This document shows positions 4,281 through 45,837 of a stretch of 64,000 nt of DNA, piece after piece (the first letter of the stretch is position 1; the number at the start of each line of letters is the position of its first letter). The position numbers and the translations under genes are program-made. Below the pieces are notes generated by a model. The model did not search any database. It saw nothing but the letters and a program-made list of their open reading frames with translations, and was not told the DNA's origin. The stretch is taken from the NCBI GenBank assembly GCA_902763185.1, contig CACWQT010000002.1:71874-135873 (forward strand), given 5' to 3'. This DNA is from an uncultured Rhodospirillales bacterium. Its GTDB lineage: Bacteria > Pseudomonadota > Alphaproteobacteria > RF32 > CAG-239.

Positions 4281-5672
4281 ATGCATAGAGCTGAGCTTTT
4301 ATTACCGGCAGGTTCACTTGTTAAGCTAAAAACGGCACTTTTATACGGGGCTGATGCGGTTTATGCCGGCACTCCCGATATGAGTCTGCGCACCCAATCC
4401 AAATTCTCGCTTGAAGAGTTAAAAGAAGGCATAGATTTAGTGCATGCCGCCGGTAAAAAAATTTACTTAACGCTCAACCTTTATATCCACAATGAAGAGG
4501 CTGAAAAGCTACCGCAATTTGTTGCAACGCTCAAGAAATTGATGCCAGACGGCGTATTGGTTGCAGACCCCGGTGTCTTTTATTACTTAAAAGAAAATGC
4601 CCCTGAGCTTAACCGCTTTGTTTCCACCCAAGCCAATATCTGCTCGGCACAAACCGTCAAATTTTGGCAATCCATGGGCGCCAAACTCTGTGTTTTAGGG
4701 CGCGAGGTTACCTTTGCCGAGATGAAAGAAATTCGCCAACAATGTCCCGATATTGAGCTTGAATGCTTTATGCATGGGGCAATGTGCATGTCCTATTCCG
4801 GACGTTGTCTCATCTCTAACTTTTTAGCCGACCGCAGTGCCAACAAAGGCAAATGCGCCCACTGTTGCCGTTGGCATTATAAACTCCATATCCGCTTAAA
4901 AGACGGCACGGTTAAAGAGCTTTTGATAGATGATAACAACAAAGATAATTTTGAATATCTTTTGGAAGAAGATTTCCGCCCCGGTGAATATTATGAGGTG
5001 GTGGAAGATGACCACGGAAGCTACATTTTAAATTCTAAAGACATGTGTTTAATGCCGCGGCTTAATGATTTGCTTAATATCGGTATGGATTCGCTAAAAG
5101 TAGAAGGACGTAATAAAACCGAGTATTACGCCGGTGTCGTGGCGCGCGCTTATCGGCAGGCAATAGATGATTATTATAATGCGCCAAAGACATGGAATCC
5201 CGAAAAATATATGCCGGAATTGATGACTTTGCAAAATCGCGGTTATTGTTTAGGTTTCCATGATGGCAAAATCACCAACATCAGCCAAAATTATGAATAT
5301 ACGCGCACCTTGGGCGAGTGGCTGTTTGCCGGCTCCATTGTTGAGTGGCAAGGCGATGACGCGATTTTTGAACTGAGGAATTACATAGAAGCCGGTGAAC
5401 CGATAGAATTTCTCATCCCTCACGGTTTGAATAATCTGACATTGACCTTAAAGGAATTTGAAGATGCCGACACCGGTGAAGTAACCGCAAAAGTTTCTGC
5501 CGGACAAGGCAAGAAAATCCGCATCAAACCAGCCCAATGGGATAAGCCTGTATCTGAGATAAAAAAGCTTTTACCGCAATATGTAATTGCCCGTAAATTC
5601 CAAGGGCTGAAAGGCGAAAATGCCGAAATGTATCAGCATAAACTCGCTGAGTGGAATAAGTTAAAAGGCTAA
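4281..5672 (+). CDS. Peptidase U32 family protein (collagenase-like / tRNA hydroxylation TrhP-like family)
   Basis: 463 aa. It carries the U32 signature ECFMHGAMCMSYSGRCLISNF and the conserved downstream SLKVEGR. Confidence 0.85.
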   Translation: MHRAELLLPAGSLVKLKTALLYGADAVYAGTPDMSLRTQSKFSLEELKEGIDLVHAAGKKIYLTLNLYIHNEEAEKLPQFVATLKKLMPDGVLVADPGVFYYLKENAPELNRFVSTQANICSAQTVKFWQSMGAKLCVLGREVTFAEMKEIRQQCPDIELECFMHGAMCMSYSGRCLISNFLADRSANKGKCAHCCRWHYKLHIRLKDGTVKELLIDDNNKDNFEYLLEEDFRPGEYYEVVEDDHGSYILNSKDMCLMPRLNDLLNIGMDSLKVEGRNKTEYYAGVVARAYRQAIDDYYNAPKTWNPEKYMPELMTLQNRGYCLGFHDGKITNISQNYEYTRTLGEWLFAGSIVEWQGDDAIFELRNYIEAGEPIEFLIPHGLNNLTLTLKEFEDADTGEVTAKVSAGQGKKIRIKPAQWDKPVSEIKKLLPQYVIARKFQGLKGENAEMYQHKLAEWNKLKG

Positions 5673-5721
5673 GTATTTAAGGCAAAACATTAAAAACCGA
5701 AAAATCGCCATAAAAGCAATT

Positions 5722-5846
5722 TTGCAAAGGGTGGAATAAAGTGCGGTGCTATCGTCGGATGTCCTGCCCTAAAGCGGAGCTTACTTAAGGGTAAGTGAGC
5801 ATTTAGGGACAGGCTTCCATCCGGCGATATGACCGTACTTTAGCAC
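5722..5846. repeat. Structured hairpin element, type B copy 1, with a GCAAAGGGTGG left flank and a CCCCCAC right flank
   Basis: The 94-nt imperfect hairpin at 5738..5831 pairs aaagtgcggtgctatcgtcggatgtcctgccctaaa with tttagggacaggcttccatccggcgatatgaccgtacttt. It shares ATGTCCTG (5749..5756) and ACAGGCTTCCAT (5799..5810) with the copy at 11056..11163. Confidence 0.75.
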
Positions 5847-5848
5847 AT

Positions 5849-5880
5849 CCCCCACTACAAAATCAAAAGAGCCACCTTGC
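5849..5880 (-). terminator. Rho-independent terminator of rpoA
   Basis: The reverse strand reads GGAGCUGCC-GCAA-GGUGGCUC followed by UUUUGAUUUU. This is a GNRA-capped stem plus a U-run, about 40 nt after the rpoA stop. Confidence 0.7.
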
Positions 5881-5917
5881 GGCAGCTCCTTATACGCAAT
5901 ATTTAAAGATTTAAGAT

Positions 5918-6928
5918 TTAGAAATGCTCATCGCACTTTTTAATCAACTCTTCAATATTCTCTGGTGGCCAACCCGGAGTTTCCATACCGAGATGGATTC
6001 CCATCTTAGCCAATACTTCTTTAATTTCGTTCAAAGACTTACGACCAAAGTTCGGTGTGCGGAGCATTTCTGCTTCTGTCTTTTGAACCAAATCACCGAT
6101 ATAAACGATATTGTCGTTCTTTAAGCAGTTTGCTGAACGAACAGAAAGCTCAAGTTCATCAACCTTGCGCAGAAGATTTCTGTCAAACGGAAGCTCTTCT
6201 TTAACATCAACAACTTCGCTTTCCGGCTCATCAAAGTTAATAAACGGCTTCAATTGGTCTTGCAAAATACGTGCAGACAAGGCAACGGCATCTTCAGGTG
6301 ATACCACACCGTTTGTTTCAACAACCATTGTCAACTTGTCATAATCTGTATTTTGACCGACACGAGTCTTATCAACTTTATAAGAAACTTTACGAACAGG
6401 AGAATAAATTGCATCAACAGCAATCACGCCGATTGTTGCATCAGCAGCCTTGTTTTGCACGGCAGGAACATAACCTTTACCTGTGCCTACTGTCATTTCC
6501 ATAGAAATTTTAGCACCTGCATCCAAAGTGCAGATAACATGATCAGGATTCATAATTTCAACATCATGACCTGTTTCAATCATACCGGCAGTAACAACTT
6601 TCGGACCTTCTGCCTTCAAGCGCATAATCTTCTGCCCTTCGGAATGAACGGCAACCGCCAATCCTTTAATATTTAAGATAACGTCAGTTACATCTTCACG
6701 CATGCCTTCAACAACTGAAAACTCGTGCAACACGCCGTCAATTTTAACGGAAGTAACTGCTCCGCCTTGTAAAGAAGATAACAAAACTCTTCTTAAGGCA
6801 TTACCTAAAGTTAAACCAAAACCTCTTTCCAAAGGTTCTACGACAATTTTCGCAATATTTTTGCCTTCGCCAGAATTAACCTCCAAATTAGTCGGTTTAA
6901 TTAGTTCTTGCCAATTTTTCTGAATCAC
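5918..6928 (-). CDS. rpoA: DNA-directed RNA polymerase subunit alpha
   Basis: 336 aa: [12 protein letters not shown]..., [18 protein letters not shown], and a C-terminal domain with [12 protein letters not shown]. Confidence 0.95.
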
Positions 6929-7410: not shown

Positions 7411-7779
7411 TTACTTCTTCTTATTAGCAACAGTCTTGCGCTTACCTTTACGGGTTCTCGCATTTTGTTTTGTGCTTTGTCCGCGAACCGGCAAGCCTTT
7501 ACGATGACGAAGACCGCGGTAGCAACCTAAATCCATTAAGCGTTTAATGTTAACGCCGACTTCACGACGAAGTTCACCTTCAACGAGGTAGTCCTTATCA
7601 ATAACTTCACGAACCTTAGCGATATCTTCATCAGAGAGCTCATGCACCCGACGATCACCAGCTACGCCCGCTTTTGCACAGATAACCTGTGCGGTTTCTC
7701 TCCCGATGCCATAGATAGAGGTCAGAGCAATCTCAAGTTTCTTGGCAGTAGGAATATTTACACCAGCTATACGAGCCAA
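7411..7779 (-). CDS. rpsM: 30S ribosomal protein S13 (TTG start)
   Basis: 122 aa: [10 protein letters not shown]..., [22 protein letters not shown]. The start codon is TTG, preceded by GGAG. Confidence 0.95.
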
Positions 7780-7849
7780 ATTAAATCTCCATTTATTTAT
7801 ATATTAAACCATTCAAAAAGTTGATCACCACTTTTCAAAATTACTGCGG

Positions 7850-7877
7850 ATTATAGAACATAAATTCCTACTGTCAA
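7850..7877 (-). promoter_or_regulatory. Near-consensus sigma70-type promoter for rpsM-rpsK-rpoA
   Basis: The reverse strand reads TTGACA (7877..7872), a 16-nt spacer, then TATAAT (7855..7850), about 70 nt upstream of the rpsM start. Confidence 0.6.
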
Positions 7878-8047
7878 CAGTTCTTTTAAAAAAAATTAAA
7901 AAAAATGCATTTTAAATGAAAAGGTTAACCGGACTTTGACTTACTTGAGAACAGTGACCAATCGACTACCATTTATAACAAACCCAAAAAACAATCGTCT
8001 AAAATGAAACCATTTAATTAAAATACAAATCCCTCCAAGTTTTATAC

Positions 8048-9574
8048 CTATTCTTTTAAGGATGCATTGATGGCGTTTTCTTGCGCCCAATTTCGTATAG
8101 TATTAATATCATCCATCCTCATTTTAGCCATAGGAACCATTCTCTTTAATACTTTTTCAAAATCAGCCATGGACAAATTAGATTTACTTTCACCATTTAT
8201 CTTTCTTACATATGCTTCTAGTAGTGAATCCTTTACCCATGACTCAATTTCAGCTCCAGTTAGACGTATATTTTTACCAAGATTACTTTCTCCAGAAAGT
8301 TTTGCCAATTTATCTAAATCATAATTTTTTATATCTCTGCCTATTTTTCTTATATGGATTTCTAATATTTTCTTCCTTTCCTCAAAGTCTGGTAAATCCA
8401 CAAAGAAAATTTCATCAAAACGACCTTTACGGAGTAATTCTGGTGGAAGGCTAGTAATATTATTAGCTGTTGCAAAGGTAAATACTGAAGCCGTTTTATC
8501 TTGCATCCAAGTTAATATATTGCCCAAAACTCTAGAAGATGTGCCTGAATCGTTATCATTTTGAAGTCCTTTTTCAATCTCATCTATCCATAATACACAA
8601 GGTGCAATTGCTTCTGCTGTTTTTATAGCCTGTCTGATATTAGCTTCTGATTCTCCAATATATTTTCCATAGATTTTACCAATATCTAGCTTTAACAACG
8701 GCATATTCCAAGCCTTAGCTATACATTTTGCCGTTAAAGATTTTCCACATCCTGGAACTCCAACTAATAAAACGCCTTTAGGTGCTGTTAATCCAAACTT
8801 TTGAGCATCATCAGAAAATGTTTTACCTCTTATTTCAAGCCAATATTTTAAATTATCTAGGCCACCGATATCTTCTAACGATAAGGAATTTTCAATGTAT
8901 TCTAAAATTCCACTTTTTCGGATAATCTGTTTCTTTTCCTTAACAATGCTTTTAACATCACTAATATCTAGGCAATGATCTTCAACCAAAGCACGTGATA
9001 AACAATTTTCTATTTCAGCGTGGGTTAGTCCAATTGCAGCATCTGTTAAAGCCGTTATAACTTCTGGAGATGTATCAATCTGTGCTTTTTCTTCATCTTG
9101 ATAATCATCCATAAATTTTTTAATTTGTTTCTTAATAGATTCCCTATCTGGTAATGGATAATCTAATACCGTTACCTCTGATGCAATATCCTTACTTATA
9201 TCAGATGATGTGGAGATTATAATACAATTACATCTGTACCCTTTATGCCTGATGTTTATGGCAAATTCCTTAAATTCTCTTTCGTACGCAGAAAGCGAGA
9301 CATCAAAAAATACAAAAATTGCAGGTTTATCTAATTTTGCAAGTTTTTCACATGCTTTAATAGCGGTCTCCACATTTTTTGTGTATTCTTGATTTTCAAA
9401 ATCAATATGCTTTCCCTTCAGTCCAGAAACTGAACTCCAAGTTACTAAATAATGCTCTAGTGATTTGGTTATTTTTTCTATATCTGTAAGTAATCTATCC
9501 TCCTCAACAGTTTGAACCAAAATCAGAGGGTACCTAGCTTTGATATAATTTTTTAATTCATCACTAAAAGTCAT
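8048..9574 (-). CDS. Ycf46-like AAA+ ATPase (classic-clade AAA module with a roughly 260-aa N-terminal domain)
   Basis: It has Walker A GVPGCGKS, Walker B VLWIDEIE, and second-region-of-homology/Arg residues ATANNITSLPPELLRKGRFDEIFF. The N-terminal segment IKARYPLILVQTVEEDRL and the linker EKKQIIRKSGILEY...IGGLDNLK match my memory of the Ycf46 family. The ATG at 9574 has an AAAGGA RBS 6 nt upstream; the ORF track extends it to a TTG at 9589. Confidence 0.85.
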   Translation of the reverse strand: MTFSDELKNYIKARYPLILVQTVEEDRLLTDIEKITKSLEHYLVTWSSVSGLKGKHIDFENQEYTKNVETAIKACEKLAKLDKPAIFVFFDVSLSAYEREFKEFAINIRHKGYRCNCIIISTSSDISKDIASEVTVLDYPLPDRESIKKQIKKFMDDYQDEEKAQIDTSPEVITALTDAAIGLTHAEIENCLSRALVEDHCLDISDVKSIVKEKKQIIRKSGILEYIENSLSLEDIGGLDNLKYWLEIRGKTFSDDAQKFGLTAPKGVLLVGVPGCGKSLTAKCIAKAWNMPLLKLDIGKIYGKYIGESEANIRQAIKTAEAIAPCVLWIDEIEKGLQNDNDSGTSSRVLGNILTWMQDKTASVFTFATANNITSLPPELLRKGRFDEIFFVDLPDFEERKKILEIHIRKIGRDIKNYDLDKLAKLSGESNLGKNIRLTGAEIESWVKDSLLEAYVRKINGESKSNLSMADFEKVLKRMVPMAKMRMDDINTIRNWAQENAINASLKE

Positions 9575-9591
9575 TGCCCATCCTTTCAATA

Positions 9592-10794
9592 TTACAATTC
9601 CAAACGTCTTTTGGTATTTTTCGGCTTTTTCTTCTGCTTCATTGAAGAAGGTAAAGTCTCATTGGTAACATTTTCGTTATCAGATGAAGAACTTGCAATA
9701 TTTTTTATAGATTTTAAGACTCCATTTTCAAATGTTCCTGCTATTTTGGGATTACCATCTTCATCATGGGTAATAATTTCTCCATCAAACACACCACCAT
9801 TGTAAGTCGCTTTTGTTCGAGGTTTTCCGTCTTCATTAAAATTTTCTGTAGTTTCTAATACCCCATCTTTATAATGTGCAATGCATGTAACATTGCCAAC
9901 TTCATCATAAGTAATTGTTTCACCGTTTAATAATCCATTTTTATATGATGCATCTGTTTGAATACCTCCTGTATTGTAATATGCTTTTATGTTAATTATT
10001 TGATCATTCGCCCAATTTTCTTCTCGCGTTAAACGACCACTATTGTCATAATACTTTGAGATACCTTCTAATACATCGTTTGCATAAGTTGCTTCACTTT
10101 GCAGGGCACCATGGGGATAATAAAGTTTTGCGGTACCTTCAATCACACCATTTTTATACGGCATTTCACTTTTTAAGAAACAACCAGAATAAGCTTTTGA
10201 AATACCTTCAATTACTCCATTAACAAAGGGTGTTTCTGCTTCTAAATTTCCGTATTTATCATATTTTTTTGCCACACCATTTAATACATCATCATAGAAT
10301 TGAAATTCATATTCCAAATTACCTTTTTTATCGTATTGTTTCCATAGCCCATATTTTTTATTTCTATAGATTTTTCCTTCCCTATACAAATTTCCATTTC
10401 TATAATATTCTTGTGTTGTTTTAGCTAATTTAGCTTCATTTTCCTTGTTTTTTTCAGAATTTGATGAAGAAATTAAAGCAATAAGTAAAAATAAGACTAT
10501 CCAAACTATAAAAGATGTTTCACTTGATGTCTTTATAGCTCCTTGCGTTAAATATTTTTTTGCTATGTATCCTGTAATACTAACGTCAAAATTTTTAAGT
10601 TTAACAGTTGATTTAACCCACCCACTTGAGTGAAGTTCACCACTTATCTCTTGCCCTTTAGTTAAACTTCCTAAAATTCTGCATTTAGTACTAGCACATT
10701 CCCGAATATTAACAGATGCATTTGCCGTATAAACATTAGCATACGCATTTGATGAATTAAATAGAAATAAAATAAAAAATAAATATTTCAGCAC
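9592..10794 (-). CDS. Membrane protein: signal peptide + SH3b domain (outside) + one TM + about 10 MORN-variant (YwqK-type) repeats (inside) + Lys-rich tail
   Basis: It has a GTG start with GGAG 7 nt upstream. The order is signal peptide MLKYLFFILFLFNSSNAYA, then an SH3b-like segment (ANASVNIRECASTKCRILGSLTKGQEISGELHSSGWVKS), then the TM FIVWIVLFLLIALISSS followed by a K-rich segment. After that come repeated ~23-aa units (YxNGxxEGxxKxYxxxGxLxxE) and the tail KQKKKPKNTKRRLEL. Confidence 0.8.
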   Translation of the reverse strand: MLKYLFFILFLFNSSNAYANVYTANASVNIRECASTKCRILGSLTKGQEISGELHSSGWVKSTVKLKNFDVSITGYIAKKYLTQGAIKTSSETSFIVWIVLFLLIALISSSNSEKNKENEAKLAKTTQEYYRNGNLYREGKIYRNKKYGLWKQYDKKGNLEYEFQFYDDVLNGVAKKYDKYGNLEAETPFVNGVIEGISKAYSGCFLKSEMPYKNGVIEGTAKLYYPHGALQSEATYANDVLEGISKYYDNSGRLTREENWANDQIINIKAYYNTGGIQTDASYKNGLLNGETITYDEVGNVTCIAHYKDGVLETTENFNEDGKPRTKATYNGGVFDGEIITHDEDGNPKIAGTFENGVLKSIKNIASSSSDNENVTNETLPSSMKQKKKPKNTKRRLEL

Positions 10795-10872
10795 CCTTTG
10801 ACTCCATAACTACCCATATAAACTAAAATAAAAATAGATATAATGCAACCAATTTATCTTTTATTTCTAATC

Positions 10873-11025
10873 TTATATTTAAACTTAAAAGCCGCTTATC
10901 AAAGCGGCTTTTGCAATGGGTTTGAGAAAATGCCCTGCTGGAAGCAGATTTGCGACTGAGGTTTACAAAACCGGTAAATAAAGGAGCAAATCTGCAATCA
11001 TGAGGGCGTTTTACCAAGCCCCCAC
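10873..11025. repeat. Structured composite element, type A copy 1 (conserved 18-mer + small terminator hairpin + GCAATGGGTTTG linker + long hairpin + CCCCCAC)
   Basis: It consists of TTATATTTAAACTTAAAA (10873..10890), the hairpin GCCGCTT-ATCA-AAGCGGC (10891..10908), TTTTGCAATGGGTTTGA, a long hairpin at 10927..11012, and CCCCCAC at 11019..11025. It is homologous to 12688..12827. Confidence 0.8.
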
Positions 11026-11055
11026 GAAAAAATGCTTAGTTTAATAAAAAGAAAA

Positions 11056-11163
11056 AATTTGAGATGGATAGAAGTAAATGTCCTGTGGCAAAAATCCTAG
11101 TGTAGATAAAACTACATGAATTTTTGCCAACAGGCTTCCATTTACGATTAGACGTTCAAATTT
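11056..11163. repeat. Structured hairpin element, type B copy 2
   Basis: This 108-nt imperfect hairpin pairs aaatttgagatggatagaagtaaatgtcctgtggcaaaaat with atttttgccaacaggcttccatttacgattagacgttcaaattt. It ends 7 nt from the secY stop. It shares ATGTCCTG (11078..11085) and ACAGGCTTCCAT (11130..11141) with copy 1. Confidence 0.75.
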
Positions 11164-11169
11164 TCCTTT

Positions 11170-12513
11170 TTATTTCTTTTTCTTGACGAGAGCAGCCTTC
11201 TTCAACAACCCCTCATACTGATACGCAAACAAGTGCGATTGAACTTGTGTGATAAAGTCAAGTGTCACTTGCACCACGATGAGAAGTGTTGTTCCACCCA
11301 AAACAAACGGAACATTTAACTTGGCAATCAAAATTTCCGGCAAGATACACAATGCCGCCAAATAAGTTGCACCGAGAACGGTTAAACGGGTTACCACATA
11401 ATCCAAATACTCTGCGGTATTTTTACCGGGACGAATACCGGCAATAAATCCGCCATGCTTTTTGAGGTTATCAGCGGTTTCTTCGGGGTTAACCACAACA
11501 GCGGTGTAGAAGAACGCAAAGAACACAATCAAGAACGCATATAAGAATAAGTAAAGCGGTTGACCATGACTTAAATAACGACTTAAAGTTTGCACCCATG
11601 CCGGTCCATTAGTTGACCAAATATTGGCAATTGTAATCGGGAGCAACAACAAAGCGCTGGCAAAAATCGGCGGAATAACACCGGTCGGGTTAACTTTTAA
11701 CGGCAAATGAGAGCTTTCAGCGGCTGTCATGCGAAGACCGATTTGACGCTTAGGATATTGCACCAAAATCTTTCTTTGTGCCATTTCCACCTTTAAGATA
11801 ATAAACACCAACAAAATACTCATCAGGAACAAGCCCAAGATAACCAAAGGTGACATAGAACCGATACGCCCTAATTCCAATGTCTGACCGATTGCAGACG
11901 GCACGTTAGCAATAATACCGACGGTAATAATAAGAGATGAGCCGTTACCGACACCGCGTGAGGTGATTTGATCACCGAGCCAAACGATAAACATTGTGCC
12001 ACCGGTAAGCGAAATAATGGTAGAAAAGATAAATGTATAAGGCGCGATTACCACCGCACTGGAACCGTCACCGTTAGATAAGCTCATAAGACCAAGCGCG
12101 ATACCATAACCTTGAACAATTGTAATTAAAACGGTTAGGAGCTTGGTATAATGCACCATTTTGCGGTGCCCTGCTTCGCCCTCTTTCTTAAGCGCCGCCA
12201 AAGACGGAACAATTGACTGTCCCAATTGTAAGATAATGGAGGCCGAGATGTAAGGCATAATGTTTAAGGCAAAAATGGTCATACGCTCCAACGCACCACC
12301 GGAAAACATGTTAAACATACCCAAGATACCGTTAGAATGTCTGGCAAACAAATCCGCAAGCACCCGCGAATCAATGCCCGGAAGCGGAATAAACGTTCCC
12401 AAACGGAAGACGATTAAAGCGCCCAAAGTAAACCACAAACGTTTTTTCAAATCCGTTGCTTTACTAAAGATAGAAACATCTATATTTGCTGTCTTTTCAC
12501 TTAATGCGACCAT
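11170..12513 (-). CDS. secY: Preprotein translocase subunit SecY
   Basis: SKATDLKKRLWFTLGALIVFRLGTFIPLPGID and the full 10-TM layout are present. I chose the start at MVALSEK (12513), which has AAGGA 8 nt upstream; the ORF track extends to 12540. Confidence 0.95.
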   Translation of the reverse strand: MVALSEKTANIDVSIFSKATDLKKRLWFTLGALIVFRLGTFIPLPGIDSRVLADLFARHSNGILGMFNMFSGGALERMTIFALNIMPYISASIILQLGQSIVPSLAALKKEGEAGHRKMVHYTKLLTVLITIVQGYGIALGLMSLSNGDGSSAVVIAPYTFIFSTIISLTGGTMFIVWLGDQITSRGVGNGSSLIITVGIIANVPSAIGQTLELGRIGSMSPLVILGLFLMSILLVFIILKVEMAQRKILVQYPKRQIGLRMTAAESSHLPLKVNPTGVIPPIFASALLLLPITIANIWSTNGPAWVQTLSRYLSHGQPLYLFLYAFLIVFFAFFYTAVVVNPEETADNLKKHGGFIAGIRPGKNTAEYLDYVVTRLTVLGATYLAALCILPEILIAKLNVPFVLGGTTLLIVVQVTLDFITQVQSHLFAYQYEGLLKKAALVKKKK

Positions 12514-12687
12514 TTTTATTTCCTTAAAATTATTATTCAAACACGACAGAAAAGCACTGTTTTTGACACAGATACTTTACCGAATTGCACCTAATCTAAA
12601 CCATAAAATTTAATTTTACCTTTAAAAAGTGCTACTTTTCCACCACCTTTTAAACAAAAGAACAGGAGTAAGAAACATAAAAAAATT

Positions 12688-12827
12688 TTATATTTAAACT
12701 TAAAAATCGCTCTTTTATGCGATTTTTGCAATGGGTTTGAAAAAGTGTCGCGCTTGAAGTAAATTTCCGACCGCGGTGTATAAAACCAATACATAAGGGA
12801 GGAAATTTATGATAATGGCGATGCTTT
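12688..12827. repeat. Structured composite element, type A copy 2
   Basis: It has the same 18-mer TTATATTTAAACTTAAAA (12688..12705), a small hairpin ATCGCTC-TTTT-ATGCGAT, TTTTGCAATGGGTTTGA, and a long hairpin at 12741..12827 whose 3' arm overlaps the trmB stop codon. Its apical 32 nt are 24/32 identical to copy 1, and the differences are compensatory. Confidence 0.8.
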
Positions 12828-34598: not shown

Positions 34599-37500
34599 AT
34601 GAAGAAAAAATTATTTTTCACAACAGCCTTAGTTGCCGCATCGTTTGTTGTCAACAACGCACTAGCAGAGACAATTACGGAACGACAAGTTATCAACTCC
34701 GGTGAAGAAAGAACCTTTAATCAGGCAACCGCAGACGGAATTGACAGCCCTTACATGAGTGGTGGTGTCATTAAAAATGCGGGAACGGTCAATATAAACG
34801 ATTCAGAATTTACCAATGATTCAGCCGATTATGGTGGGGTAATTTATAATTCAAATGAATTAAACATTGATTCTTCTACATTTAATAACAATCACGCATC
34901 CTCCTCCGGCGGCGCTATTCACAACAGCACAAACGGCACTGTAAACATTACCGGAAATACAACTTTTGAGGGCAACACCCATAGTCCTAATGCCGGTGAT
35001 GACATTCCTAATGATGTTTTTAACACGGGAACCTTAAATCTTAATCCTGATAAAAAGGAAAAGATCTTTTTTGGCGGCGGTATTGACGGTGATGGCGGTA
35101 GTGAACACGGAACCCTGAATATTAATGGTCAAGGTGAGGTTTGGGTCAGAAATGAGTTAATCTATCATGATGTCAATCTGAATTCCGGCTCGTTGGTATT
35201 AGCTCCGTCAACATCAGCAAAAGCATCCCGATTCGTTATTGAGGACAATGCAAAATTCAGTGCAAACAACACAGTATTTAAGAACAGCCATGCCGGTGAA
35301 GAAGAAGATGGCGGTGCTATTTCCAGAACCTTTACAAACGAGGATAATGCCGGCGAGGAAATCATCAGTATCACCAGTTCTGAGTTCAAGAACAATACGG
35401 CTGAAAGCGGCGGTGCCATTTCAAATGAGCGCATCGGTAGTGAAGAAGGTGCCGTATCTTATGTTAGTCCGACATTTATAGCACACACTGTTTTTGATGA
35501 AAATGAAGCAGAATATAGCGGTGGGGCAATTTATAACGAAGGAACAATGCAAATCGTAAATTCTGAATTTGACAACAACAAAACAACCGACGGGCGATCT
35601 TATGGTGGTGCCATTTATAATGGCTCAAAGGGATTACTTACAATCGACTATTCAGACTTTAATAAGAACAAGACCGGATTCTCCGGCGGTGCCATCTACA
35701 ACGATGATGGTGATATAATTATTTCAAATTCAAACTTTACGGAAAACTCTGCCGACGGTCAAAGCAATCCAAGTGGTTTTGGCGGGGCTATTTATAATGA
35801 AACAGGTAAAATAACAATAACCGATTCTACTTTTGACGGAAACAACGCAACAGGCTCAGCTGTTAGTTCCGGAGGAGCAATTTATAACGATGCGAGAATG
35901 GATGAAAAACGCAATCCCGCAGCAATTATAAAAATATCTAATTCAGAATTCCAAAATAACGAAACAAGTTTGGGCGGTGCTATATATAACGGTGGCCAAT
36001 TAGATCTTACCGATGTTTCATTTGCTGAAAACAAGGCCGCTTTTGAGAACCGAAATTTCGGCGGAAGTGGCGGAGCTTTGTATAATTATTGGTTAGCAAA
36101 TATCAATGGTGGTTCGTTTAAGCACAATAATGCATTTGATGGCGGGGCAATTTTTAACCGTGATACAGCAACAATCAGCTCCACCTTTACAGAAAATAAT
36201 GCCTATCTCGGCGGCGCAATCTATAATGAACGTAATATGTCCATTTCAGATTCTACTTTTAGCGGTAACACAGCTACGGAAGATGATTCTGAATCTGGTT
36301 TATCAAGCGGCAAAGGCGGTGCTATTTATAATTATGGCAAAATGGACATTGTAAATACAACCTTTGAGGATAACAGCACAGATAAATACTATTCCTTTGG
36401 TGGTGCTATTTATAATAATAAGTATGGTAAAATTGTTATTTCCGATTCCGCATTTTCAAAAAATGAAGCTAAAAACGGTGATGGATATGGAGCGGGACAT
36501 GGCGGAGCTATCAGCAATGTTGATGGTGGCACAATAACTATCTCTGATACAACCTTTACCGATAACAAGACATATGGTGCAGCAGGCTCACCGGATGCTG
36601 GTGGTGCAATTTATAACGATATCGGCACCATAAAAATTACAAATGCAACCTTTTCCAACAATGAAACCGTTGGCTCCGCAACCGGTATGGGTGGTGCCAT
36701 TTATAACGAGGGATCATTGGACGATGACGGAATAGTAGAAATATCAGATACAACTTTTAACAGCAACAGATCAAGTTTTGGCGGAGCAATTAATAATAAC
36801 AGCGTATTAAAGCTAACCAATGTTAAATTTAACCAAAACCAAGCACATATGGACTATGCCGTTGGTGAATATGGCGGTATAGGCGGATCCGTATATAATA
36901 ACGATTTCGGACAAGCTACAATCGTCAATGGTATGTTCGTAAATAACTCCTCTGAAGGTAATGGCGGCGCTATATATAATAGAGGAAAACTATCTTTCAG
37001 CGGAGACACCGTATTTGAAGGCAACACCTCAAGAGATGTAAAGAACGACATTTATAACAGTTATGGAACAATCAATGTAGACGGAAATATATCTTTGGAT
37101 GGCGGTATCATCAATTCCGGCACAATTAATTTTAACAATGCAAATTTGAAAGCAAATCTTGTTGATGCTGACGATGACACCACTAAAATTATCGCCGGTG
37201 TTGATGCAACACATTTGGGAACACTTAACGGTTCAATAAACTTAGTATTAACTGATGAGGATATCACTAAAAAGATTGTTTTGGAAGGTGATAAAACCGG
37301 CTTCAACTTAGATAATACTTTGTATAATGTTGAGTTTGACAAAGCCGACACTTATACTGTTTCAGGCAAAAAGAATGCCGGTCAGATTGCAGAATCAACC
37401 GGTGCTAACGCAAATCAGGCCGGCACCATTGAAGCAATTATGTCAAATACCGCGGCTACCGGCAATGCTAACTTTAATGCCATTGCGTCTGACCTCAACA

Positions 37501-38495
37501 ATATGTTGCAATCTGGTAACACGGCACAAATTCAGACAGCATTAGAAGCTGTTGCAACATTGGCTCCGGGTGTTGCCCCGATGGTTGAACAAACTCAAAC
37601 GGAAACGGTTAACCAAGTATTTAATGCGGTCGGAACACGCTTAAGCGGCGGAGCTTTTAGCAGTTCACAAGGTATGTCATCAGGCGACGCCTGGGAAAAT
37701 GCCACCGTTTGGATGCAAGGCCTAGCTAACCATACAAAACTTGATACATCATCAAAATCTACCGGTTTCAAAGCTGATACTTACGGCGCAGCTTTCGGGG
37801 TAGAAAAGAAAATCGATAATGATGTAAAAGCAGGTATCGGTTATGCTTATAACAAAACAGATGTTAACAGCAAAGGGCGTGATACTGATGTTAAAACCCA
37901 CACCCTCTTAGCCTATGGCGAATATAAACCAAGCGATTGGTTTGTAAACGGTATCGCCTCTTATAACTGGTCTGATTACAAAGAAAAGAAAAATGTAATC
38001 GGTAATATTATAAACGCTGATTACGATGTTGATGCATTAGGTATACAGGTAATGACCGGATATGATTTACATAATCAATATGCCACCATTACACCGGAAG
38101 CCGGATTGCGTTATATGCATATTCACGGCGATAATTATACCGATACTGCCGGACAAAATATCAATTTTAATAACAGCAATATCATAACCGGAGTTGCGGG
38201 CTCAAAAATCAGCAAAACCATTGAAACTGAATCCGGCTTAAGATTAACACCGGAAGCGAGATTTGCGATGACTTATGACTTGAACAGGGCTCATAATAAA
38301 TCAAACGTAATGCTGCCAAATGGTTCATTATACAGCATCAACGGTAAAACCTTAGACCGTTTTGGCGTTGAAATAGGTGCCGGTTTAACTGCTGAAATCA
38401 ATTACAACATTGAGATGTCATTAGGCTATGAAGGTAGCTTCCGCAAAGATTATCAAAGCCACAGCGGCTTGCTTGACGTTAAATACAAATTTTAA
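34599..38495 (+). CDS. Autotransporter adhesin-like protein with Pmp-type (GGAI/FxxN) repeats and a C-terminal beta-barrel
   Basis: 1298 aa with the signal peptide MKKKLFFTTALVAASFVVNNALA. It has about 20 copies of F-x-x-N...GGAIYN. The C-terminal ~280 aa have alternating beta-strand character and end ...LLDVKYKF (aromatic terminus). Confidence 0.9.
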   Translation: MKKKLFFTTALVAASFVVNNALAETITERQVINSGEERTFNQATADGIDSPYMSGGVIKNAGTVNINDSEFTNDSADYGGVIYNSNELNIDSSTFNNNHASSSGGAIHNSTNGTVNITGNTTFEGNTHSPNAGDDIPNDVFNTGTLNLNPDKKEKIFFGGGIDGDGGSEHGTLNINGQGEVWVRNELIYHDVNLNSGSLVLAPSTSAKASRFVIEDNAKFSANNTVFKNSHAGEEEDGGAISRTFTNEDNAGEEIISITSSEFKNNTAESGGAISNERIGSEEGAVSYVSPTFIAHTVFDENEAEYSGGAIYNEGTMQIVNSEFDNNKTTDGRSYGGAIYNGSKGLLTIDYSDFNKNKTGFSGGAIYNDDGDIIISNSNFTENSADGQSNPSGFGGAIYNETGKITITDSTFDGNNATGSAVSSGGAIYNDARMDEKRNPAAIIKISNSEFQNNETSLGGAIYNGGQLDLTDVSFAENKAAFENRNFGGSGGALYNYWLANINGGSFKHNNAFDGGAIFNRDTATISSTFTENNAYLGGAIYNERNMSISDSTFSGNTATEDDSESGLSSGKGGAIYNYGKMDIVNTTFEDNSTDKYYSFGGAIYNNKYGKIVISDSAFSKNEAKNGDGYGAGHGGAISNVDGGTITISDTTFTDNKTYGAAGSPDAGGAIYNDIGTIKITNATFSNNETVGSATGMGGAIYNEGSLDDDGIVEISDTTFNSNRSSFGGAINNNSVLKLTNVKFNQNQAHMDYAVGEYGGIGGSVYNNDFGQATIVNGMFVNNSSEGNGGAIYNRGKLSFSGDTVFEGNTSRDVKNDIYNSYGTINVDGNISLDGGIINSGTINFNNANLKANLVDADDDTTKIIAGVDATHLGTLNGSINLVLTDEDITKKIVLEGDKTGFNLDNTLYNVEFDKADTYTVSGKKNAGQIAESTGANANQAGTIEAIMSNTAATGNANFNAIASDLNNMLQSGNTAQIQTALEAVATLAPGVAPMVEQTQTETVNQVFNAVGTRLSGGAFSSSQGMSSGDAWENATVWMQGLANHTKLDTSSKSTGFKADTYGAAFGVEKKIDNDVKAGIGYAYNKTDVNSKGRDTDVKTHTLLAYGEYKPSDWFVNGIASYNWSDYKEKKNVIGNIINADYDVDALGIQVMTGYDLHNQYATITPEAGLRYMHIHGDNYTDTAGQNINFNNSNIITGVAGSKISKTIETESGLRLTPEARFAMTYDLNRAHNKSNVMLPNGSLYSINGKTLDRFGVEIGAGLTAEINYNIEMSLGYEGSFRKDYQSHSGLLDVKYKF

Positions 38496-44578: not shown

Positions 44579-45550
44579 TTAAATTAAATTGAGCATATAA
44601 CCTGTTATAATAAACGCTGTCAGCAAATATCCGACAAACATTGCCAGCAGTTTATAAGTAAAAACACGCTTTAACATCATCATTTCAGGCAAAGATATGG
44701 TGGCAATACTCATAAACATAACCAAAGCCGTGCCGACAGGAACACCTTTCATCAACAAAACTTGCATAATCGGAACTATACCTGCTTGTGAAGCATACAT
44801 CGGAATTCCGATTATTGCTGCCACAGGAACCGCAAAAATATTATCTTTTCCCAAATATCTGATAAACAATTCTTGCGGAATGTAGCCGTGCATAAATGCA
44901 CCTATTACTAAACCAATTAAAATATATATGGCTAATGATTTTATAGTGTCTATTGCAAATGTATTAGCATATTTTATCAAAGCTACTGCTTTTTCTTTTA
45001 TATTTTTACAAGAACAATTCGGTGGTGTTACATTTGGTATCTGCATAGCAAGATATTTTTCAATTTGAAATTTGTCTGCTAAATATCCTGCTAAAACAGA
45101 AATTATTGTTCCACTTATAATATAAAGAGCTACAATATATACTCCTGTTTCTCCCATAGCCAGCAACATAATTGCTGCTATTTCACTAATAAGTGGAGAA
45201 CTTACCAAAAATGCTATACTAACACCAAAAGGAACGCCTGCAGCTAAAAAACCCATAAATAATGGAATACTTGAACAAGAACAAAAAGGTGTAACAACGC
45301 CCAAGAACACTGCAAGAAAATATCCTGCCCATTTTGATTTGCCGGACAAATAAGCTCTAACTCTTTCAGGACTTAATTGTGAACGAAATAGTGATATAAT
45401 AAAGATTAGTACATATATCAGAACAAAAATTTTAGTTGTATCTTCAATAAAAAAATGTACAGCTTGTCCAAAATGTGTTGTCAAATCAAGCCTCATTAAA
45501 GATGTCAGCCAATCTGCAAGCCTTGTAAATATATCTAGCATTCTAAACAA
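44579..45550 (-). CDS. Permease of the DUF318/ArsP-like family
   Basis: 323 aa, polytopic. The signature TPFCSCSSIPLF and a second half-repeat are present. Confidence 0.8.
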   Translation of the reverse strand: MFRMLDIFTRLADWLTSLMRLDLTTHFGQAVHFFIEDTTKIFVLIYVLIFIISLFRSQLSPERVRAYLSGKSKWAGYFLAVFLGVVTPFCSCSSIPLFMGFLAAGVPFGVSIAFLVSSPLISEIAAIMLLAMGETGVYIVALYIISGTIISVLAGYLADKFQIEKYLAMQIPNVTPPNCSCKNIKEKAVALIKYANTFAIDTIKSLAIYILIGLVIGAFMHGYIPQELFIRYLGKDNIFAVPVAAIIGIPMYASQAGIVPIMQVLLMKGVPVGTALVMFMSIATISLPEMMMLKRVFTYKLLAMFVGYLLTAFIITGYMLNLI

Positions 45551-45837
45551 CCTCCCTCACAGCAATCTTTTAATAGAAAATGTGCAGCTTCTTTAATAGC
45601 TTTACAGTTTGGTTTATATATAAGTGTCTTTCCTTTTTTTTCAAAAGAACATAGATTTGCTTGAGTTAAAATATTCAAATGAAATGAAAGTGTGTTTTTT
45701 GCCATACAATCAAGTTTATTAAACATTTCTGTCGGAGTGATGCCTTCTTTACTATGTTCTACCATTAGGCGGAAAATTTTTAGCCGACCTTCCTGACTTA
45801 ATGCTTCAAAAATAGTGGTTATCTGCTCTGTTTTCAT
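45535..45837 (-). CDS. ArsR/SmtB-family metalloregulator
   Basis: 100 aa with a winged HTH (FEALSQEGRLKIFRLMVEH...LSFHLNILTQANL) and a Cys-rich C-terminus DCCEGGCLEC. Confidence 0.85.
   Translation of the reverse strand: MKTEQITTIFEALSQEGRLKIFRLMVEHSKEGITPTEMFNKLDCMAKNTLSFHLNILTQANLCSFEKKGKTLIYKPNCKAIKEAAHFLLKDCCEGGCLEC

Follow-up and report, generated by a model that had tools for sequence, protein, structure and literature searches.

A foreign gene pair in the adk slot of an uncultured Rhodospirillales bacterium combines a Ycf46-like AAA+ ATPase with a membrane protein that bears a recurrent C-terminal tag

What connects a repeat-bearing membrane protein with the AAA+ ATPase (ATPase associated with diverse cellular activities) encoded directly behind it, and how did both come to lie between secY and rpsM, where the relatives of their host carry adk? 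The question is raised by a 64,000-nt stretch of contig CACWQT010000002.1 of an uncultured Rhodospirillales bacterium (the window), on whose minus strand secY (11170-12540) is followed by a 400-aa open reading frame (ORF; 9592-10794), here called the partner, and then by the ORF of a plausibly Ycf46-like AAA+ protein, rpsM, rpsK and rpoA. The partner was found to end in K-R-R-L-E-L-COOH (9595-9612), an instance of the motif R-x-[ILVM]-[DE]-[FLIVM]-COOH, and no description of the pairing of this tag with one ATPase family across bacteria, plasmids and phages was found in the databases and papers searched. To our knowledge, the Ycf46-like ATPases of cyanobacteria, plastids, many bacteria and phages have so far had no known partners or mechanism. 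All features given below lie on the minus strand unless stated otherwise, and L-numbers denote loci with homologues or relatives that were compared with the window.

The association between tag and ATPase was evaluated by a scan of 76 loci with the above motif, genes being counted as near when they lay within four genes of an AAA homologue. The tag was carried by 23 of 374 near genes on the same strand, as against 1 of 850 others (Fisher odds ratio 56, p 1.5e-11). It occurred on 1 of 182 nearby genes on the opposite strand. Of 674 genes farther away, six were tagged, and each of these belonged to a same-strand array in L006 or L007, the latter locus having seven tagged genes in a row in one operon. 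In the window, the partner was the sole tagged ORF among 159, so that a clade AAA protein with a tagged same-strand neighbour directly upstream is present there. The sequence RRLEL ends the partner, its homologue in L001 and an unrelated SH3-Ank protein in L003; the longer AAA homologues end in GGR-x-[IL]-D-[FL], and most AAA proteins of the clade are themselves tagged. The sequence-only reading of this DNA had recognized the basic tail of the partner, which is indeed present, but had ended it at KKKPKNTKRR and thereby left out the last residues, RRLEL. The tagged proteins include Ank-repeat, MORN, HhH, WGR, SLOG/YpsA, DUF3150, DUF6744 and polytopic membrane proteins, and tags were also found on a Bacillus cereus plasmid and in viral contigs. 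Residues −35 to −6 were on average 69% polar in tagged proteins, compared with 59% in untagged ones. The codons of the tag vary synonymously and the DNA beyond the stop codon is unrelated between loci, which indicates that selection acts on the tag peptide and not on the DNA; for the same reasons, a DNA-level recombination or cassette-junction site was rejected. A KDEL-type retention signal, which follows the rule [KRHQSA]-[DENQ]-E-L, was rejected on that rule and on the presence of the tag in free-living Pseudomonas and Paenibacillus. Other endings were also observed. The AAA proteins of L045, L084, L038 and further Chloroflexi and cyanobacterial loci form a separate clade with a conserved QFVP[IL]QL[DE] tail, and Bacteroidota members end in NRSFD or NPF; in the FVPIQLE and NRSFD clades, no neighbours sharing the tail of the ATPase were found.

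The pair is part of a foreign segment of 3,246 bp (7921-11166) that stands for adk and about 30 nt (about 700 bp) of close relatives. In blastn comparisons with the cassette-less relative L257, homology stopped at 11167, the secY stop, and restarted at 7920, and comparison with L092 gave similar limits. The order secY-adk-rpsM-rpsK-rpoA was found in 80 of 80 SecY relatives from metagenomes and the cassette in 0 of 80. The adk gene was also present in four contigs whose RpoA falls within the 90% cluster of the window, all four having the upstream HTH-trmB-secY synteny (HTH, helix-turn-helix gene), so that secY, adk and rpsM are contiguous without the cassette in all 84 relatives examined. Contigs of the same species from other samples showed an arrangement identical to that of the window. 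The G+C (GC) content ranged from 0.29 to 0.33 throughout the segment, and the two cassette genes have the lowest and third-lowest values among the 56 genes of the window, with 0.306 for the partner and 0.326 for the ATPase against a mean of 0.398 (standard deviation 0.032). At third codon positions (GC3) the values were 0.175 and 0.212 against a mean of 0.379 (standard deviation 0.063), about three standard deviations below the window mean. In another organism (L172), the pair lies between truA and yraN-rsmI, with an AAA protein 91% identical to that of the window and a partner ending in KKKPKNIKRRLEL. DNA homology between L172 and the window is limited to the two ORFs, which together with the different site indicates that the pair moves as a unit. 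At the 90% level, the AAA protein has 3 cluster members and RpoA 250. That the cassette was horizontally acquired and displaced adk follows from its low GC and GC3, from its lack in all relatives compared and from the second chromosomal site in L172, and the AT-rich composition, the occupation of the adk slot and the foreign origin are thus as the sequence-only reading had described them. No recombinase accompanying the pair and no adk elsewhere were found in the 64-kb window; adk, being essential, must sit elsewhere in the genome or have been replaced. Within a genus-level lineage, mobile DNA has here taken over the place of an essential gene in a conserved cluster, secY-rpsM.

Further departures from the usual order were observed around this slot. 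The ribosomal-protein cluster is broken in the lineage (5672-5918 and 12540-12826), rplQ not following rpoA and secY being preceded by trmB and an HTH gene and not by rplO; this layout is common to L257-L260 and L092. In the more distant relative L097, about 4 kb with two ORFs of 432 and 835 aa (7994-12014) lie between adk and rpsM. Insertions may recur in the secY-rpsM interval.

The ATPase gene (8048-9574) starts with an ATG at 9574 and encodes 508 aa. It follows the partner stop codon (9592-9594) after a 17-nt gap that holds an AAAGGA Shine-Dalgarno sequence. The start was set by the alignment of homologues, which supports it; a longer, TTG-started ORF (8048-9589, 513 aa) is unsupported by that alignment and was rejected. 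The protein matched Pfam PF00004 (E 5e-33, 114.7 bits against a cut-off of 21.2), and its predicted active module, comparable to the D2 ring of Cdc48-type proteins (8051-8884), contains the Walker A motif GVPGCGKS (8738-8761, aa 272), the pore loop KYIG (8654-8665, aa 304-307), the Walker B motif VLWIDE (8579-8596, aa 327) and the second region of homology RKGRFD (8414-8431, aa 382). Two co-oriented genes 17 nt apart, the second coding for a 508-aa AAA+ protein with intact Walker A, Walker B and arginine-finger region, had been read from the DNA in the same way. In most close homologues, the aligned pore-loop residues follow the pattern Y/F/W-V/I/L-G. The best solved relatives of the module were the D2 domains of VAT and p97 (E about 6e-56). 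The N-terminal domain (8885-9574), previously taken to span about 260 aa, comprises about 230 aa and was modelled with AlphaFold2 (AF2; mean predicted local distance difference test, pLDDT, 75.5) as an alpha/beta domain of alternating strands and helices. Foldseek aligned about 550 columns of the model with D1 plus D2 of p97, Cdc48, NVL, Rix7 and Pex1/6 (probability 1.0), and on the strength of this fold and of the two-tier alignment the domain was identified as a degenerate AAA-like D1 without a P-loop. By sequence and model, the protein is thus of the two-tier, Cdc48-like unfoldase type, its motifs being intact and purifying selection being indicated by ratios of nonsynonymous to synonymous substitution (dN/dS) of 0.09-0.24. 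It ends in ...NAINASLKE and lacks the C-terminal tail found in most members of the clade.

More than 8000 homologues of the ATPase were retrieved, and the N-terminal domain alone gave 1342 cluster representatives at E<=1e-3. Homologues with 36-69% identity were found in gut and rumen Alphaproteobacteria, Prevotella, Pseudomonas, Paenibacillus, Brevibacillus, actinomycetes, Chloroflexi, cyanobacteria and archaea, as well as on plasmids, in a streptococcal satellite and in many viral contigs. The phage family phrog_8638, of unknown function, matched the whole length of the protein (2e-133), and the NCBIfam matches were all partial and far under their cut-offs.

The partner comprises, from the N-terminus, a signal peptide, an SH3b-like domain, one transmembrane (TM) helix, MORN repeats and a basic tail, an architecture that agrees with the sequence-only reading, the SH3b match being borderline. 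The signal peptide VLKYLFFILFLFNSSNAYA (10738-10794), translated from a GTG start, was read by eye from a hydrophobic N-terminus and an AYA cleavage-type motif. The SH3b-like domain (10549-10716, aa 27-82), presumed to be periplasmic, matched SH3_3 (PF08239) with E 6e-6 and 26.7 bits against a gathering cut-off of 27. It matched the SH3_3 region of the L003 Ank protein by BLASTP (E 2e-8), and P0121, the partner in L172, has a precomputed PF08239 hit. The Cys-x4-Cys pair of this domain is conserved in L001, L003 and L173, which would fit an extracytoplasmic location. The TM helix TSFIVWIVLFLLIALISSS (10462-10518, aa 93-111; Kyte-Doolittle 19-residue mean up to 2.33) is followed by a Lys-rich segment and by about ten MORN_2-type repeats (9715-10413), presumed to form a cytoplasmic scaffold, which exceeded the gathering score of PF07661 (E 4e-20, 70 bits against 29.6); from NCBIfam, only a partial LIC20035 match was obtained for the array. 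A polar, probably disordered linker of 34 aa, KSIKNIASSSSDNENVTNETLPSSMKQKKKPKNT (9613-9714), leads to the tag. Given the signal peptide, the conserved Cys-x4-Cys and the single TM helix, a topology with SH3b outside and MORN inside is plausible. The partner is 49% identical to the protein encoded upstream of the L001 AAA homologue and 56% identical to P0121, with dN/dS of 0.27-0.41. Its comparison with L172 is mosaic, the SH3 end and the tail-AAA end having about 91% nucleotide identity and the MORN middle 73-86%.

In the clade nearest to the window, the ATPase is usually accompanied by a DUF2997 protein of about 210 aa, a small NrdG-like radical S-adenosylmethionine (SAM) enzyme and at least one tagged protein. 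Among AAA proteins with at least 45% identity, those with a tail had DUF2997 nearby except in L005 (a 4-kb contig) and L075, and the NrdG-like gene except in L075; the five without a tail (window, L001, L002, L019 and L020) had neither. No homologues of DUF2997/DUF1257, NrdG-like or Hxs genes were found in the 64-kb window. The full system, with DUF2997/DUF1257 and NrdG-like genes in the operon and an AAA protein ending in GGR-x-[IL]-D-[FL], is therefore not what the window contains, and the reduced state seen there was also found in L001, L002 and L172. Most likely, what the window contains is a pared-down version of a larger, widespread mobile system. Tagged partners occur without DUF2997 in L172, and without a DUF2997 gene within 8 kb in the window, L001, L027, L074 and L202; in such loci the AAA protein is the sole constant neighbour of tagged proteins, which is the main argument for the ATPase as receptor of the tag. 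The proposal that the two genes form a recurrent functional pair is supported by the finding of SH3-, MORN- or Ank-bearing membrane proteins beside AAA homologues in seven loci (L001, L003, L007, L011, L172, L173 and L175). One Ank-AAA fusion (P0046), on a single 3.1-kb contig, is weak evidence. In L001 (2869-6587) and L002 (1767-5154), HxsD, two HxsB/HxsC-like radical SAM enzymes and a PG_binding_1 protein are encoded directly downstream of the pair, L001 having in addition DUF5334, which L002 lacks, and, after these genes, a nuclease and a resolvase. A His-Xaa-Ser-type maturation module, as identified by adjacent HxsB, HxsC and HxsD, thus travels with the cassette in L001 and L002 and is missing from the window.

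The reading that we hold with slightly more confidence than doubt is that of a tag-tethered unfoldase cassette, a foreign operon reduced from a larger mobile system, in which the tag docks a membrane partner on the AAA hexamer. The ATPase would be a two-tier Cdc48-like unfoldase with a nucleotide-dead, D1-like N-domain and a D2 ring with an aromatic pore loop, and the first gene would supply a bitopic inner-membrane partner with SH3b directed toward the periplasm or cell wall and the MORN solenoid in the cytoplasm. At the end of a flexible, polar linker about 35 residues long, K-R-R-L-E-L-COOH would be exposed, and docking through this tag would place the unfoldase at the inner membrane, with SH3b touching the cell wall and the repeat scaffold offering either a client or the partner itself to be remodelled at the expense of ATP. 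Three elements of the larger system would have been lost from the window form, namely the tail of the ATPase itself, the NrdG-like radical SAM enzyme and the DUF2997/DUF1257 protein. The partner evolves faster than the ATPase and is mosaic, as would be expected of a conserved engine with a variable specificity subunit. Comparable docking is known from ClpX, to which SspB binds through its C-terminal XB peptide, and from Vps4, whose MIT domain is bound by the MIM peptides of ESCRT-III (endosomal sorting complex required for transport). As to the biological role, inter-genomic conflict is the leading guess, a role in defence is plausible, and envelope surveillance, the other role put forward in the sequence-only reading, is a candidate only. 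Some relatives lie between integrases or resolvases and beside a CBASS (cyclic oligonucleotide-based antiphage signalling system) operon, and another lies in an island with a methylase and recombinases; among 150 neighbours at 21 loci, 4 resolvases, 3 integrases and matches to PDC-S01, PD-T4-6, mad, MkoA and LmuB were counted, these raw counts being only suggestive.

Several points weigh against this reading. The physical binding of tag and AAA protein, like the topology of the partner, we infer from sequence; an AF2 monomer of a tailed homologue left the tail with pLDDT <55, and no docking site was found in it. As the tail of the ATPase co-occurs with both the DUF2997 and the radical SAM genes, the receptor in the full systems may be one of their products. 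The cassette could also be what is left of the larger system after loss of function, though purifying selection acts on both of its genes. The evidence for a defence context is anecdotal, many relatives being found in ordinary chromosomal, housekeeping or phage contexts. Beyond the window, it is conceivable, at somewhat less than even confidence, that RRLEL is the address label of an unrecognised and widespread class of tag-addressed AAA+ systems, in which interchangeable sensor, adaptor or membrane partners plug into a Ycf46-like unfoldase, DUF2997/DUF1257 and an NrdG-like Fe-S enzyme gate the full systems, and the whole moves among bacteria, archaea, plasmids, satellites and large phages. 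If so, the orphan Ycf46 family would for the first time become accessible to mechanistic study, and a role of the system in conflict or defence would add a modular architecture, one unfoldase engine with plug-in sensors, to those known.

The tag might instead act as a degron or engagement site, which would agree with the intact KYIG pore loop, with the prevalence of membrane proteins among the tagged ones and with the polar linker, whose length of about 35 residues and terminal motif are ideal for initiation by a translocase. The partner would then be the substrate, its disordered C-terminus being threaded by the AAA protein, which would extract it from the membrane or unfold it, for example to switch an envelope function; Msp1/ATAD1, Cdc48 in endoplasmic-reticulum-associated degradation and ClpX on ssrA tags act in this manner. 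We regard this as unlikely, since the cassette encodes no protease, soluble repeat proteins are tagged too and most ATPases of the clade carry the tag themselves, which would be odd for a degron. With still less conviction, the tag may be viewed as a recognition or modification site of the radical SAM enzyme, or as a docking site of DUF2997/DUF1257, that is vestigial in the window. The co-occurrence of tailed AAA proteins with both genes and the lack of both beside the five tail-less ones would be explained in this way, and L001 and L002 have HxsD and two radical SAM genes beside the pair; nevertheless, the tag is essentially unchanged in L001, L172 and the window, all DUF2997-less, the last being devoid of homologues of either gene over its 64 kb. 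In the particular form of a glycyl-radical site for the NrdG-like enzyme, the proposal was rejected, the order being G-R and not R-V-x-G-aromatic, and the Gly before the Arg being unconserved in the partners.

Three further explanations were considered improbable to different degrees. An export or assembly signal, with the AAA protein as unfoldase or chaperone of an undescribed translocation pathway, the polytopic proteins as channel and the Ank, MORN and HhH proteins as cargo, would account for the L007 operon, which combines tagged Ank-repeat arrays with tagged polytopic membrane proteins, and C-terminal signals do serve type IV and type VII secretion. It is very improbable, because a Sec-type signal peptide and a TM anchor are already present in the partner, the tag is also found on the ATPase, a cytoplasmic protein, and no known secretion component was seen among the neighbours. 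Scarcely any credence is given to a defence pair of the IetAS/SgiAT or toxin-antitoxin kind, in which the AAA protein would regulate a toxic membrane effector. The PADLOC IetA models did match the ATPase (E 1.6e-25), as did NCBIfam IteA (4.9e-22), and some homologues lie in mobile islands beside CBASS; however, these matches span only the generic AAA core (aa 259-504), with 78.6 bits against a cut-off of 510 for IteA, there is no S8 protease partner and the N-domain is unrelated. Finally, a vertically inherited housekeeping pair, orthologous to cyanobacterial Ycf46, was suggested by full-length similarity of 36-37% to cyanobacterial AAA proteins, but is effectively refuted by the absence of the pair at the locus in all 84 relatives, by its GC3 and by the other site and small 90% cluster described above.

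Hairpins were found on the secY side of the cassette, within the foreign segment. A long imperfect hairpin, followed by a terminator with a GC stem and T-run (AAAAGCCGCTTTGATAAGCGGCTTTT), corresponds to inverted repeat I1 (10887-11020; RNA fold −53.9 kcal/mol), and a further hairpin (11090-11140; −28 kcal/mol) occupies the left edge of the segment, immediately beyond the stop codon of secY. Both are single-copy in the window, and the only Rfam match of the former was sub-threshold (Leu_leader, 29 bits against 50), so that a repeat family or a known RNA was rejected; the two structured repeat elements that had been described beside secY correspond to these two hairpins, of which only the long one has a terminator. 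Just outside the cassette, the native rpsM promoter, TTGACA-16-TATAAT (7850-7877), was kept with 12/12 consensus positions, in a stretch conserved with L257 and L092. A sub-threshold Rfam Alpha_RBS match (7747-7819; 30 bits against 38) lies at the start of rpsM and is consistent with survival of the native S4-regulated rpsM leader. Farther away, a second low-GC gene pair (44579-45837; GC 0.32-0.33, GC3 about 0.22) codes for an HTH regulator of the ArsR type (HTH_20) together with an ArsP_1 permease; it, too, was probably acquired horizontally as a module. A 1298-aa autotransporter on the plus strand (34599-38495), with Chlamydia-type polymorphic membrane protein repeats and a C-terminal beta-barrel, suggests that this uncultured gut or rumen alphaproteobacterium lives in association with a host or a surface.

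The pair had been proposed to be of a composition without a described counterpart, and database and literature searches agree with this. PADLOC, Pfam, NCBIfam and PHROGs gave only generic or unknown-function matches, PADLOC has no model for the system, IetA being the only defence model that matched (part of the AAA core), and no description of a tag-AAA system or pairing was found in the full-text searchable literature. The main value of the locus is its tag, which opens the orphan Ycf46-like family to experiment; as a feature shared by the ATPase and its variable neighbours, it offers a testable hypothesis for the recruitment of clients or adaptors, and as a simple sequence rule it allows partners to be found in any genome.

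The nearest known systems each resemble the cassette in part. Like Ycf46, the window ATPase is about 500 aa long, and it shares 36-39% identity over 97-99% of its length with cyanobacterial AAA proteins (L045 from Limnothrix, L084, and plasmids of Geminocystis, Pseudanabaena and Planktothrix), none of which bears the name Ycf46; Pfam and NCBIfam contain no profile specific to Ycf46. Many of its relatives sit with DUF2997 and DUF1257 (Ycf35) genes, which are also clustered in cyanobacteria (PMC4284462). Ycf46, with Synpcc7942_0417 named, has been described as a stress-induced, KaiC-interacting ATPase from a three-gene operon (bioRxiv 10.1101/2025.07.21.665879), whereas the window gene is foreign, lacks a DUF2997/DUF1257 neighbour and is not a vertically inherited housekeeping or stress gene in a native operon. 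The cyanobacterial and Chloroflexi clade further differs by its QFVPIQLE tail and by the absence of tagged neighbours. IetAS and SgiAT share with the cassette the form of a two-gene mobile module around a classical-clade AAA protein, but differ in the N-domain and partner architecture and in the protease partner, which the window lacks, the sole neighbours of its ATPase being the MORN protein and rpsM; with an IetA match over the core only (aa 259-504), the window pair falls outside this family. The MORN_2 array of the partner places it near MORN_2/YwqK-type proteins, its remote homologues being generic MORN_2 proteins, one of which is named YwqK antitoxin by a source; neither the SH3b-TM front end nor the RRLEL tag is present in those proteins, which are not linked to an AAA protein.

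Cdc48/p97/VAT, NVL, Rix7 and Pex1/6 gave the top matches among solved structures, with both tiers aligned and with an aromatic pore loop and the arginines of the second region of homology in common. The window protein differs from Cdc48/p97 in that its D1 has no Walker A and would be nucleotide-dead, in that it has no double-psi-barrel N-domain and in its length (508 aa against about 750-800 aa). The Cdc48/p97 model TIGR01243 matched D2 only, with 116.9 bits against a cut-off of 802.65, which leaves the protein outside that family. Cofactors of Cdc48-type machines dock via short peptide motifs, and the partner may be likened to other peptide tethers of AAA+ proteins, namely SspB XB on ClpX, the MIM peptides of ESCRT-III on Vps4 MIT and the HbYX tails of PAN/Rpt, in its flexible linker and extreme C-terminal motif. 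By analogy, one motif would be common to several proteins that serve one ATPase and, as in the HbYX tails, would also be borne by the C-terminal tail of the ATPase itself. The tag-linked system would differ from these in its motif, R-x-[LI]-[DE]-[LF], and in having neither a MIT domain nor the zinc-binding N-domain of ClpX.

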